Shown here: positions 4,482 to 50,990 of the stretch, piece by piece
How positions within the stretch are numbered: position 1 is the stretch's first letter
Layout of the letters: each line of letters opens with the position of its first letter
DNA from: Escherichia coli O157:H7
Lineage (GTDB): Bacteria > Pseudomonadota > Gammaproteobacteria > Enterobacterales > Enterobacteriaceae
Strand: one strand, 5' to 3'
DNA length: 64,000 nucleotides
Assembly: GCF_013167455.1 (NCBI RefSeq)
Contig: NZ_CP038328.1
The notes under the pieces: generated by a model
Told to the model about the DNA's origin: nothing
What the model saw: the letters and a program-made list of their open reading frames with translations, nothing else
The model's database searches: none
Program-made: the position numbers and the translations under genes

Positions 4482-4504
4482 AAATAATACCGTTCTCTTT
4501 ATAA

Positions 4505-4580
4505 AGTAAAACCCCCGAACTGGTAAGGAACGGGGGTTTTACTTTTTAACTTTAATTTTGTGCAGCACACGATTCCAACG
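4505..4580 (-). ncRNA. ohsC: Candidate OhsC antitoxin sRNA, divergent from shoB
   Basis: Minus-strand CATAAT -10 element at 4587-4592; the transcript would contain the 19-nt element at 4560-4578 and end at the 4508-4547 terminator; known shoB/ohsC layout. Confidence 0.45.
4508..4547. terminator. Bidirectional rho-independent terminator (AAAACCCCCG / CGGGGGTTTT with T-runs on both sides)
   Basis: Perfect 10-bp stem read in the sequence; serves acpS on + and the candidate ohsC transcript on -. Confidence 0.7.
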
Positions 4581-4902: not shown

Positions 4903-4983
4903 ATGACTGATTGCCGATACCTGATTAAACGGGTCATCAAAATCATCATTGCTGTTTTACAGCTGATCCTTCTGTTCTTATAA
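4903..4983 (+). CDS. shoB: Type I toxin ShoB (26-aa hydrophobic peptide MTDCRYLIKRVIKIIIAVLQLILLFL)
   Basis: ORF below the 60-aa track cutoff, read by hand; AAGGA Shine-Dalgarno 7 nt upstream; peptide recognised as ShoB; lies between acpS and yfhL as in K-12. Confidence 0.8.
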   Translation: MTDCRYLIKRVIKIIIAVLQLILLFL

Positions 4984-13466: not shown

Positions 13467-13498
13467 AGCCCGGATGAGGCATTCACGCCGCATCCGGC
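13467..13498. repeat. REP-like palindromic element
   Basis: GCCCGGATGAGGCATTCACGCCGCATCCGGC, the same motif family seen at 31177 and 49762. Confidence 0.5.
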
Positions 13499-13776: not shown

Positions 13777-13960
13777 AGTGGCTCATTCACCGACTTATGT
13801 CAGCCCCTTCGGGACGTGCTACATAAAATTCGAATGACGCACAACAAGGTGCCTGCCGTCCAACTTCTGATATCAGCGTAGCTATATCAACCATCGGGCG
13901 AAACGTCGAGTTAGGCACCGCCTTATTCCATAACAAAGCCGGGTAATTCCCGGCTTTGTT
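13777..13960 (+). ncRNA. glmY: GlmY small RNA
   Basis: Sequence AGTGGCTCATTCACCGACTTATGTCAGCCCCTTCGGGACG... recognised as GlmY; ends in the hairpin AAAGCCGGG/CCCGGCTTT plus U-tract; about 184 nt. Confidence 0.85.
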
Positions 13961-40736: not shown

Positions 40737-41540
40737 TTAACGCTTCAGAGCGTCGCTTAACTCGTCACGCATGTTCGCCAGCATGGCTTTAACAACACGC
40801 GGGTTACCAGCAACGATGTTACCGGTCAGCATATAGTTATGACCACCGGTGAAGTCGCTGACGATGCCGCCCGCTTCACGAACAAGCAGCTCGCCTGCAG
40901 CGAAGTCCCACGGGCGCAGACCGATTTCAAAGAAACCGTCAACACGACCCGCAGCGACGTAAGCCAGATCCAGCGCCGCAGAACCGGTACGACGGAAGTC
41001 TGCACATTCGTTGAACAGTTTGCCGACGATGTTGATGTAGGTAGTGGCGTACTGTTTTGCTTTGAACGGGAAGCCGGTCGCCAGAATAGTACCGTCGAGA
41101 TCGCGAGCGGTGCTGCCGCGCAGACGGTAGCCGTTCAGCTGTGCGCCCTGACCGCGAGTGGCGGTGAACAGTTCGTTACGCATAGGATCGTATACCACAG
41201 CAACTTCGGTGCGGCCTTTGATACGAACGGCGATAGATACCGCGAAGTGCGGCAGACGTTTGATAAAGTTGGTAGTGCCATCCAGTGGATCGATAACCCA
41301 TTGAACATCCTGATCAGTACCTTCAAGTTCACCGCTTTCTTCGGTGATGATGGTGTGCTGTGGGTAAGATTTACGAATCGTGTCGATAATCACCGCTTCG
41401 GCAGCTTTATCTACGTTGGTCACGAAGTCGTTACTGCCTTTCTGGCTCGCTTCTACAGCGTCCGGGGTTTCATAGTTTTTGGCAATCAAATTACCCGCCT
41501 TGCGCGCTGCGCGCACGGCGATGTTCAGCATCGGATGCAT
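40737..41540 (-). CDS. suhB: Inositol monophosphatase family protein
   Basis: 267 aa; recognised SuhB sequence with the WVIDPLDGT motif. Confidence 0.95.
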   Translation of the reverse strand: MHPMLNIAVRAARKAGNLIAKNYETPDAVEASQKGSNDFVTNVDKAAEAVIIDTIRKSYPQHTIITEESGELEGTDQDVQWVIDPLDGTTNFIKRLPHFAVSIAVRIKGRTEVAVVYDPMRNELFTATRGQGAQLNGYRLRGSTARDLDGTILATGFPFKAKQYATTYINIVGKLFNECADFRRTGSAALDLAYVAAGRVDGFFEIGLRPWDFAAGELLVREAGGIVSDFTGGHNYMLTGNIVAGNPRVVKAMLANMRDELSDALKR

Positions 41541-41658: not shown

Positions 41659-42396
41659 ATGCTGCAAAATATTCGAATTGTGCTGGTGGAGACGTCACAC
41701 ACCGGCAATATGGGTTCTGTTGCCCGTGCCATGAAAACAATGGGATTAACCAATCTGTGGCTGGTTAATCCACTGGTGAAACCTGACTCCCAGGCGATTG
41801 CCCTGGCGGCGGGGGCCAGCGATGTGATTGGTAATGCTCACATCGTCGATATGCTCGACGAAGCGTTAGCCGGTTGTAGCCTGGTGGTGGGCACCAGCGC
41901 ACGTTCCCGCACGCTGCCGTGGCCGATGCTCGACCCGCGCGAATGCGGTCTGAAAAGCGTTGCTGAAGCGGCAAATACCCCGGTGGCGCTGGTGTTTGGT
42001 CGCGAACGTGTCGGCCTGACCAATGAAGAGTTGCAGAAGTGTCATTATCATGTCGCGATTGCCGCTAACCCTGAATACAGCTCGCTGAACCTGGCGATGG
42101 CGGTTCAGGTTATTGCCTATGAAGTGCGTATGGCCTGGCTGGCAACTCAGGAAAATGGCGAGCAGGTCGAGCATGAAGAGACGCCGTATCCGCTGGTCGA
42201 TGATCTGGAGCGTTTTTATGGTCATCTGGAACAAACGCTGCTGGCAACCGGTTTTATCCGTGAAAACCATCCGGGGCAGGTGATGAATAAATTGCGCCGT
42301 CTGTTTACCCGTGCGCGCCCGGAAAGCCAGGAATTGAATATCCTGCGCGGGATTCTGGCTTCTATAGAGCAGCAGAATAAAGGTAATAAGGCCTGA
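41659..42396 (+). CDS. trmJ: tRNA (cytidine/uridine-2'-O)-methyltransferase
   Basis: 245-aa ORF, SpoU-family methyltransferase. Confidence 0.92.
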
Positions 42397-42423
42397 GGGC
42401 TAAGCCAGATAAGTGCACGGACG

Positions 42424-42470
42424 GTCCCCTCGCCCCTTCGGGGAGAGGGTTAGGGTGAGGGGAACAGGCC
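42424..42470. repeat. GC-rich palindromic repeat-like element (BoxC/RIP-like)
   Basis: TCCCCTCGCCCCTTCGGGGAGAGGGTTAGGGTGAGGGGAA in the trmJ-iscR spacer. Confidence 0.3.
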
Positions 42471-42586
42471 TGCGCTAATGCGAATAATTGCCCTCAACCC
42501 GCCCATGGTCTGGAAGGATAACAGGTACAAACGCCACGATAAAAAAATGGCACTGAAGGTTAAATACCCGACTAAATCAGTCAAGT

Positions 42587-42645
42587 AAATAGTTGACCAA
42601 TTTACTCGGGAATGTCAGACTTGACCCTGCTATGCAATACCCCCA
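42587..42645 (+). promoter_or_regulatory. iscR promoter region with IscR autoregulatory sites
   Basis: AAATAGTTGACCAATTTACTCGGGAATG resembles the IscR type 1 site; overlaps a TTGACC -35-like element. Confidence 0.5.
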
Positions 42646-42696
42646 CTTTTACAATAAAAAACCCCGGGCAGGGGCGAGTTTGAGGTGAAGTAAGAC

Positions 42697-43185
42697 ATGA
42701 GACTGACATCTAAAGGGCGCTATGCCGTGACCGCAATGCTTGACGTTGCGCTCAACTCTGAAGCGGGCCCGGTACCGTTGGCTGATATTTCCGAACGTCA
42801 GGGAATTTCCCTTTCTTATCTGGAACAACTGTTTTCTCGTCTGCGTAAAAATGGTCTGGTTTCCAGCGTACGTGGACCAGGCGGTGGTTATCTGTTAGGC
42901 AAAGATGCCAGCAGCATCGCCGTTGGCGAAGTGATTAGCGCCGTTGACGAATCTGTAGATGCCACCCGTTGTCAGGGTAAAGGCGGCTGCCAGGGCGGCG
43001 ATAAATGCCTGACCCACGCGCTGTGGCGTGATTTGAGCGACCGTCTTACCGGTTTTCTCAATAACATTACTTTAGGCGAACTGGTTAACAACCAGGAAGT
43101 GCTGGATGTGTCTGGTCGTCAGCATACTCACGACGCGCCACGCACCCGCACACAAGACGCGATCGACGTTAAGTTACGCGCTTAA
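42697..43185 (+). CDS. iscR: Fe-S cluster regulator IscR
   Basis: 162 aa; Rrf2-family HTH and the CxxxxxCxxxxxC cluster ligands. Confidence 0.96.
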
Positions 43186-43296
43186 TAAAAAGTATTCAGA
43201 ATCAGGCCGGGGCGTATCGCGCTCCGTAAACACGGTCGTACATCCAGCCGGTAGCCTGGTTCCTTGCATTGAGTGATGTACGGAGTTTATAGAGCA

Positions 43297-49761: not shown

Positions 49762-49860
<99 letters not shown>

Positions 49861-49895: not shown

Positions 49896-50672
49896 ATGTC
49901 CGAAACAAAAAATGAACTTGAAGACCTGCTGGAAAAAGCAGCAACCGAACCGGCGCACCGCCCGGCCTTTTTCCGTACTCTACTGGAATCCACCGTCTGG
50001 GTGCCTGGTACGGCGGCGCAGGGCGAGGCTGTGGTTGAAGATAGCGCGCTTGATTTACAGCACTGGGAAAAAGAAGACGGCACCAGCGTCATTCCTTTTT
50101 TTACCTCGTTAGAAGCACTTCAACAGGCGGTTGAAGACGAACAGGCATTTGTCGTAATGCCCGTTCGCACATTGTTTGAGATGACCCTTGGCGAAACGCT
50201 CTTCCTTAATGCCAAACTGCCGACCGGTAAAGAATTTATGCCGCGTGAAATCAGTTTGTTGATTGGTGAAGAGGGAAATCCGCTGAGCAGCCAGGAAATC
50301 CTGGAAGGCGGTGAATCGCTGATATTATCGGAAGTCGCAGAGCCGCCAGCACAAATGATTGATTCACTCACCACCTTATTTAAAACCATTAAGCCTGTGA
50401 AGCGTGCTTTTATTTGTTCAATTAAAGAGAACGAAGAGGCACAGCCTAATTTACTTATTGGCATTGAAGCCGATGGTGATATCGAAGAAATTATTCAGGT
50501 GGCGGGAAGTGTAGCGACCGATACATTACCTGGCGATGAACCAATCGATATTTGTCAGGTGAAAAAAGGGGAAAAAGGAATTAGCCACTTTATTACCGAA
50601 CATATTGCGCCATTCTATGAACGTCGCTGGGGTGGTTTTTTGCGTGACTTTAAACAGAATCGGATAATCTAA
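49896..50672 (+). CDS. sseB: SseB family protein
   Basis: 258-aa product from the internal ATG (MSETKNELEDLLEKA). Confidence 0.88.
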   Translation: MSETKNELEDLLEKAATEPAHRPAFFRTLLESTVWVPGTAAQGEAVVEDSALDLQHWEKEDGTSVIPFFTSLEALQQAVEDEQAFVVMPVRTLFEMTLGETLFLNAKLPTGKEFMPREISLLIGEEGNPLSSQEILEGGESLILSEVAEPPAQMIDSLTTLFKTIKPVKRAFICSIKENEEAQPNLLIGIEADGDIEEIIQVAGSVATDTLPGDEPIDICQVKKGEKGISHFITEHIAPFYERRWGGFLRDFKQNRII

Positions 50673-50675
50673 AAT

Positions 50676-50990
50676 ATGCCGCCCCAAAGGGCGGCATTCG
50701 GGCTTACCTGCTGCTCTGAAGGTTGTTAATCACCAGTAAATTGTCGCCGGAGAGACTCCGGTTATTATTTACCTCGGTTAACAGCGCACCAGAAACAATA
50801 AGTACGATACAGAAGCACCGTATCTTCATTGTGCGGTCCATGCGAAGACCGCATCACGACAGCACCACTGGCGATATTGCCGCGATAGCAAGCACTGTGG
50901 GGTGCCTGTATTTACGGTCATGGAACATTCTTTCCTAAAGCCAGCGCCCGTTTGCGAGACGGCGAAAAGGGCCATTAAGAATAATACTCT
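50676..50990 (-). ncRNA. ryfA: ryfA-like transcript (a short mRNA annotated as an sRNA); 5' end uncertain
   Basis: Minus-strand rho-independent terminator at 50676-50697 (ATGCCGCCC/GGGCGGCAT then a U-rich tail); position between sseB and sseA matches ryfA. Confidence 0.45.
50704..50829 (-). CDS. Candidate small hydrophobic protein inside the ryfA transcript (41 aa, MKIRCFCIVLIVSGALLTEVNNNRSLSGDNLLVINNLQSSR; TimP-like toxin candidate)
   Basis: ORF below the track cutoff, read by hand on the minus strand; stop lies 7 nt before the terminator hairpin; alternative in-frame start at 50841; no strong Shine-Dalgarno. Confidence 0.3.
   Translation of the reverse strand: MKIRCFCIVLIVSGALLTEVNNNRSLSGDNLLVINNLQSSR

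Follow-up and report, generated by a model that had tools for sequence, protein, structure and literature searches.

What is the GC-rich repeat that lies between trmJ and iscR in Escherichia coli O157:H7, and does it act on either of the two genes? We addressed this question in a 64-kb stretch of DNA (the window), which contains suhB (- strand, 40737-41540), trmJ (+ strand, 41659-42396), iscR (+ strand, 42697-43185), and iscS in this region. The trmJ gene was taken from the list of open reading frames (245 aa) and carries this name in the annotations of Sakai, K-12, and other genomes. The trmJ-iscR spacer is 300 bp long and 100% identical to that of O157:H7 genomes, and a 3-kb stretch of the locus differs from Sakai at 1 of 3001 positions. 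Within 42424-42470, the initial annotation had quoted a GC-rich 40-mer, which occupies 42425-42464 on the + strand and begins 29 nt past the trmJ stop codon (42394-42396). The distance from the 40-mer to the first conserved IscR-site block (about 42562) is 100 nt, in agreement with the annotated position about 100 bp upstream of the IscR sites.

The core of the element is tripartite and is not a simple palindrome. It is a 36-mer, CCCTCGCCCCTTCGGGGAGAGGGTTAGGGTGAGGGG (42427-42462, + strand), which we assigned to the type A mm class of the BoxC / PIT / TMECO family from a reading of the sequence and from published tables. The core starts with a C-block, CCCTCGCCCC (42427-42436, + strand), followed by the loop TTC, and continues with a G-block, GGGGAGAGGG (42440-42449, + strand), followed by the loop TTA. 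A second G-block, GGGTGAGGGG (42453-42462, + strand), closes the type-A core. Either G-block can pair with the C-block, and both pairings occur in the predicted folds. The 23-mer GGGAGAGGGTTAGGGTGAGGGGA is expected 0.00 times in the shuffled window. The DNA folding energy of the 58-nt segment is ordinary (z = -1.05), as 25 of 200 dinucleotide shuffles fold equally well. The RNA fold reaches -27 kcal/mol over 58 nt, and with flanks it is moderately unusual (106 nt, -48.6 kcal/mol, z = -3.08). Because the DNA hairpin is not significant against dinucleotide shuffles, we do not rest the case for the element on folding energy: it stands beyond chance by its sequence and not by its DNA folding energy.

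This sequence has been described before. A full-text literature search with GGGTTAGGGTGAGGGG led to Holder et al. 2015 (PMC4666352), where the same sequence is the "TMECO" intrastrand triplex motif. According to that paper, the motif was first named BoxC (Bergler et al. 1992) and was rediscovered as the PIT (potential intrastrand triplex) element (Hoyne et al. 2000). The TMECO pattern consists of C-rich, complementary G-rich, and mirror G-rich blocks of 9-10 nt each with short loops between them; type A has TTA in loop 2, and "mm" denotes a single mismatched triplet (PMC4666352). The window copy shares the C/G/G blocks, the TTA second loop, and one mismatched triplet (CTCGCCCC versus GGGGAGAG), and its 36-mer differs by one loop-1 base from K-12 TMECO 7, 11, and 15 (Table 1 of PMC4666352). 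The same paper counts 23 TMECO in K-12 (Table 1) and 11 in Sakai. In its Table S8, the identical 36-mer is Sakai TMECO no. 29 (NC_002695.1, 3383021-3383056), and the entries adjoining no. 29 are more than 400 kb distant. In NC_002695.2, the 36-mer is located at 3383156-3383191, between iscR (ECs_3397) and trmJ (ECs_3398). As the identical 36-mer is TMECO no. 29 in the trmJ-iscR spacer of Sakai, with its neighboring entries so far away, the window copy is already catalogued. Both the element and this particular copy are therefore already known.

The family is dispersed through the genome. We built a profile HMM (nhmmer) from 13 copies at other loci (gcvP-ygfF, recA-recX of O145:H28, barA-gudD, hrpB-mrcB, fepB-entC, alx-sstT, lldD-trmL, tauD-hemB, adk-hemH, fabI-ycjD, frlR-yhfS, zntA-tusA, and yjdP-phnP), leaving the window copy out. 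In the 64-kb window, this HMM matches 42412-42527 alone (E = 4.5e-28), and this copy is intergenic, between trmJ and iscR. In a genome-wide search, a 96-nt query around the element matched at a median of 17 places in each E. coli genome and at 13 places in O157 strains, and the element was multi-copy in every E. coli genome searched. The outcome that would have refuted the initial annotation, a motif unique in the genome and not conserved, was thus not obtained. The type A mm match, the HMM score, and the copy number together bear out the first reading of the element as a BoxC-type dispersed repeat. Bachellier et al. 1999 is reportedly a further source on this repeat family. No Rfam family represents the element: Antizyme_FSE alone overlaps it, on the opposite strand, at 18.4 bits where the threshold is 40 (E = 1.2), a chance hit. 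Elsewhere in the window, Rfam matches above the gathering score are the ryfA sRNA (50671-50975, - strand), the GlmY sRNA (13777-13924, + strand), the rncO leader (876-1090, + strand), and the ohsC antitoxin RNA (4503-4579, - strand).

The repeat is longer than the 40 nt reported, with family similarity running from 42412 to about 42517-42527. Alignment with six composite copies at other loci shows that the window copy is itself a composite (about 42412-42519), in which a 28-nt linker joins an intact type-A unit to an inverted type-B unit that has decayed. The left flank, AGTGCACGGACGGTC (42412-42426, + strand), is defined by the family alignments (consensus G.GCAC.GAC.GTC), and the HMM match starts at 42412. 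The linker, AACAGGCCTGCGCTAATGCGAATAATTG (42463-42490, + strand), is likewise defined by alignments and has high posterior probability in the HMM alignment. Its pattern across composites is AACAGGCC.GC.C....GCGAA.A.TT., and the linker is common to the composites at gcvP-ygfF, recA-recX, barA-gudD, fepB-entC, and alx-sstT. The type-B arm (42491-42519, + strand) was identified by aligning it to intact composites of K-12 and to the alleles of O26:H11 and L009, and has low posterior probability in the HMM alignment. This arm keeps CCCTCAACCCGCCC (42491-42504) and the loop CTGGAAGG (42510-42517), its pairing blocks are destroyed, and it is no longer a functional TM. O26:H11 and L009 represent a second BoxC allele subtype, which differs at 4 cassette positions and shows identical decay of the B arm. 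Since the decay is present in both BoxC allele subtypes, it is not recent.

Such anatomy is in line with published descriptions of the family. A/B inverted pairs are described in both PMC4666352 and PMC5100583, and palindromic TM pairs are often partly deleted (Holder et al., PMC4666352). Like other family members, the window copy is intergenic, belongs to a multi-copy set, is paired with an inverted type-B unit, and lies at a strain-variable locus; it differs in the decay of its type-B partner arm, and in nothing essential. The definition of TMECO covers a motif of 34-37 nt, whereas our alignments extend the similarity to the left flank, the 28-nt linker, and possibly outer motifs. The sequence past 42520 was also considered as a relic of the right end of the element, and we dropped this candidate, as the similarity is too weak.

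The outer motifs bear on how the composite may have arrived. One explanation is that it is the core of a MITE-like, non-autonomous transposable element of ~175 bp that inserted past trmJ and supplied the present stop codon. Composites have an outer left motif in common, ATGA.AA, which precedes the GTGCAC flank by about 20 nt, and a matching right motif, T.TCAGCAA, is found in three of six composites; the window has TGAGGGCTAA at the equivalent position, starting at the trmJ stop codon. At recA-recX, O145:H28 and K-12 show a presence/absence difference of +174 bp, and the Klebsiella occupant of the same place after trmJ is a different subtype, type B. However, these outer inverted motifs are weak, short, and imperfect, there is no clean target-site duplication at recA-recX or trmJ-iscR, and no transposase is linked to the family. 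Holder et al. (PMC4666352) found no association with transposons, phages, or plasmids, and most TMECO copies were at the same loci across 56 strains. We therefore consider the transposable-element origin unlikely.

The recA-recX spacer is 242 bp long in O145:H28 RM12581 (L005:1480-1721), where it contains a BoxC composite with a decayed B arm, and 68 bp long in K-12. Expression of recX depends partly on read-through from recA. Given this read-through, the BoxC composite in the recA-recX spacer could matter for recX.

At trmJ-iscR, the composite occupies a slot that varies among E. coli strains. We aligned four alleles (the window, K-12, CRE1493, and 675SK2), and this alignment delimits a variable cassette of 126 bp (42394-42519, + strand), which is here the BoxC composite. 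The cassette starts at the trmJ stop codon TGA (42394-42396), directly after the last sense codon common to all alleles. TrmJ is consequently 245 aa long in BoxC alleles (...KGNKA*) and 246 aa long in BIME alleles (...KGNKAE*), with the K-12-type trmJ ending in ...AAGGCC GAA TAA. The alternative cassettes contain 1, 2, or 3 BIME (REP Y + Z2-like) units, about 98, 189, and 280 bp in length. Three tandem REP-pair (BIME) units are present in the K-12 allele (spacer 451 bp), two in the CRE1493 allele (360 bp), and one in the 675SK2 allele (269 bp).

The full spacer with the BoxC allele was found in 1432 of 5426 complete E. coli genomes (about 26%), and in the remaining about 74% of genomes the spacer match starts only at position 121-124. 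Allele types were read from 60 genomes taken at even steps through the ranking, which is neither a random sample nor a census: 17 had the BoxC cassette, 22 one BIME unit, 11 two units, 9 three units, and 1 a deletion. The spans covered by a synthetic query joining the trmJ end to the promoter were 356 bp (BoxC), 328/329, 419, and 510 bp, each being 230 bp plus the cassette length. This junction query always matched in two pieces, so that 0 of the 59 E. coli genomes in the sample whose locus is intact had an empty slot. Holder et al. (PMC4666352) reported far more rearrangement between strains at TMECO loci than at control sites in intergenic DNA, and the polymorphism of the slot fits this published rearrangement.

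The two kinds of occupants resemble each other in some respects. REP/BIME-2 elements are, like BoxC, GC-rich imperfect palindromes just past a stop codon and a source of intergenic polymorphism, and they lie in exactly this slot in about 74% of E. coli genomes. The two nevertheless belong to unrelated sequence families, and BIMEs are tandemly amplifiable, with 1-3 units at trmJ-iscR. REPs have a mobilizing enzyme family (RAYT), stabilize mRNA, and bind gyrase and IHF, whereas BoxC is not known to have a mobilizer or an mRNA-stabilizing or gyrase/IHF-binding activity. RIP elements are derivatives of REP/BIME and need an IHF site between REPs. The element had also been called RIP-type, which is incorrect, as the REP consensus is absent from 42394-42519 and REP/BIME units belong to the alternative spacer alleles. 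A pattern search for the REP consensus GCC(G/T)GATGCG(G/A)CG(C/T), with inverted pairs expected and 1 mismatch allowed, gave 5 sites in the window and 0 within 42394-42519, and we rejected a REP, BIME, or RIP identity for the element. The exact REP consensus GCCGGATGCGGCGT occurs at 13485-13498, 31193-31206, and 49762-49775, so REPs are near, though the trmJ-iscR slot of the window is without any.

The same slot was compared in other genera. A scan of species-representative genomes with the IscR-site 20-mer AGTTGACCAATTTACTCGGG (42591-42610) gave 23 Enterobacterales loci, each from another species with the exact 20-mer upstream of iscR. Escherichia, Salmonella, and Citrobacter were represented by 0 of these 23 loci, though the 20-mer is exact in E. 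coli spacers; this may reflect a gap in the collection. An IscR-based search for relatives of Escherichia returned E. coli-level loci only, with trmJ 96-99.9% identical. Buttiauxella, Cedecea, Pantoea, Mixta, and one Trabulsiella strain have a repeat-free minimal spacer of 134-150 bp. In a second Trabulsiella strain and in an Enterobacter, the slot contains REP-like hairpins. In K. oxytoca and K. michiganensis, it is occupied, in the orientation seen in E. coli, by a type-B BoxC whose linker is similar, as pairwise alignment clearly shows. The type-B BoxC of K. spallanzanii is partly deleted. When applied to other genera, the type-A-trained HMM detected a single copy at E < 1e-3, in Buttiauxella, and did not pick up the type-B copies of Klebsiella. 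The repeats in Klebsiella, Trabulsiella, and Enterobacter, set against the repeat-free genera, lead us to conclude that the slot is repeatedly occupied and that a repeat there is not universally required.

Two further observations were made in these genomes. Buttiauxella izardii (L028) contains type-A and type-B-like BoxC at 13877-13952 and 4948-4980, within about 10 kb of its isc locus, and its own trmJ-iscR spacer is repeat-free; the family is thus present in this genus and absent from the slot. In Pantoea and Mixta, the spacers (L023, L026, L027, L030, L031, L035, and L040) contain 2-3 tandem IscR-site-like units directly past trmJ, each unit being TAAATAGTTGA...TTAC..GGT, whereas E. coli has two different sites there.

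The initial annotation further proposed that the element could insulate or terminate trmJ transcription. The element resembles an intrinsic terminator in being a GC-rich stem-loop downstream of a stop codon, but it has no U-tract past the hairpin, the sequence following the stem being AACAGGCCTGCGC. A scan of 42300-42750 found no terminator-like site on the + strand between trmJ and iscR. According to the summary of Hoyne & Maher 2002 given in PMC4666352, PIT elements have neither promoter nor terminator activity and leave RNA polymerase unaffected. We therefore rejected the intrinsic terminator as an identity for the element, as no U-rich tract directly follows its hairpin and the + strand scan was negative, and neither the proposed termination nor the proposed insulation of trmJ transcription is supported. 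About 74% of genomes are without the element at this site, while the promoter-proximal DNA of iscR is identical in the four aligned alleles. Holder et al. (PMC4666352) reported that the function and distance of neighboring genes are unbiased for TMECO. A literature search for newer functions of BoxC and for Rudd's intergenic repeats found nothing relevant.

The slot could still serve as a functional position for 3'-end hairpins, in which BoxC and BIME are interchangeable modules kept by selection and the stem-loop protects trmJ mRNA against exonucleases that act 3'-to-5', or reduces read-through into iscR. Both occupants are strong hairpins, as the RNA folding energies given above indicate for BoxC, and REP elements are known to stabilize upstream mRNA. 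Because no empty slot was found among the 59 genomes and BoxC or REP-like hairpins recur in Klebsiella, Trabulsiella, and Enterobacter, some stable stem-loop past trmJ may be under selection. However, in five genera, and in one Trabulsiella strain, a minimal spacer without any repeat is sufficient, the hairpin has no U-tract, and the summary in PMC4666352 reports PIT elements to be without terminator activity. History accounts equally well for the missing empty allele, through a single old insertion that was later replaced and that no mechanism could excise precisely, and the 60 genomes were spread by rank and not drawn at random. Selection for a hairpin in this slot is, in our judgment, quite improbable.

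The region between the cassette and iscR shows no corresponding variation. A stretch of 177 bp (42520-42696, + strand) is identical in the four aligned alleles and lies outside the repeat. Within it are two IscR-type sites (about 42562-42590 and 42587-42613) and the iscR leader; the naming of these as IscR sites follows Giel et al. 2006. Downstream of iscR, in the iscR-iscS spacer, Rfam identifies a full-length iscRS "iscR stability element" (RF01517, 127.8 bits, 43186-43295).

The structural chemistry of the core raises one more explanation, namely that a G-quadruplex, an intrastrand triplex, or a hairpin in the core acts as a DNA-structure switch that modulates PiscR in carrier lineages. A regex scan of both strands for canonical G-quadruplex motifs (four runs of at least 3 G, loops 1-7) found GGGGAGAGGGTTAGGGTGAGGGG (42440-42462, + strand), the sole such motif on either strand in the 64 kb. 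This tract contains the 21-mer GGGAGAGGGTTAGGGTGAGGG, which Kaplan et al. 2016 (PMC5100583) named HPG1 and described as a G-quadruplex/hairpin/duplex switch in vitro. The window element resembles HPG1 in having the identical 21-mer and the conserved C-rich 5' flank, in its 3'-UTR-proximal intergenic position, and in the HPG2-like unit paired with it on the opposite strand. For the family consensus as single-stranded DNA, a purine-motif intrastrand triplex was demonstrated by CD and NMR (PMC4666352). Kaplan et al. (PMC5100583) also linked the HPG1 motif computationally (GOMo) to GO terms for iron-sulfur clusters; given this link and the G-quadruplex/hairpin switch in vitro, a role near iscR may exist.

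Several observations stand against such a switch. In ViennaRNA calculations, the G-quadruplex of the 42440-42462 tract has an energy of -12.6 kcal/mol; for the core as single-stranded DNA, the G-quadruplex is only marginally ahead of the hairpin (-13.5 versus -12.5 kcal/mol), and it is not favored for the core as RNA. The triplex was detected neither in duplex DNA nor in vivo by DMS footprinting, and no bias in gene class or distance was found (Holder et al., PMC4666352). The GO association is a motif-scan statistic on K-12, the genome used in PMC5100583, which has no copy at trmJ-iscR, and the regulatory role put forward for HPG1 is a proposal. In addition, the element is missing here from about three quarters of E. 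coli genomes, and the iscR promoter does not differ among the four aligned alleles. We thus regard a DNA-structure switch acting on PiscR as extremely improbable.

Taken together, we believe with good confidence that the element is a BoxC copy, a decayed A/B composite, in a hypervariable slot after trmJ, and that it is most likely a passenger without a dedicated role for iscR. The analysis shows that the copy belongs to the family and is a composite, that its presence varies among strains, that the iscR promoter region does not change with it, and that it has no intrinsic-terminator signature. The slot, starting at the trmJ stop codon, is filled according to lineage by the BoxC composite or by 1-3 BIME units. 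If transcribed, the element would form the 3' tail of trmJ mRNA and can fold there into a strong stem-loop. It should be functionally neutral for iscR, and any effect at the RNA level would not go beyond protecting the 3' end of trmJ in the manner of a REP. Turnover of the slot may be driven by replication or repair problems at triplex-, G-quadruplex-, or hairpin-forming DNA, as hypothesized by Holder et al. (PMC4666352). The main demonstrated consequence of the element is local sequence instability, with allelic turnover of the spacer.

A far more speculative idea, which we consider very improbable, is that the BoxC and BIME cassettes are not neutral alternatives but lineage-specific modules, which would control the amount of trmJ transcription or DNA-structure stress arriving at the iscRSUA promoter, with the BoxC hairpin, G-quadruplex, or triplex as a conditional roadblock. 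If this were true, the repeat in the slot would make Fe-S cluster homeostasis in O157 and B1-type strains different from that in K-12-type strains.

As a passenger, the element as it stands matters little: the family, its structural chemistry, and its instability between strains are published, and this copy is in a public table. It is relevant in practice that experiments on iscR regulation in K-12 use a spacer with three BIME units, whereas O157:H7 and about one quarter of E. coli genomes have the BoxC composite and a TrmJ that is one residue shorter. The slot is a clear natural case of two unrelated repeat families replacing each other and, as it recurs in Klebsiella, it could be a test bed for repeat turnover.
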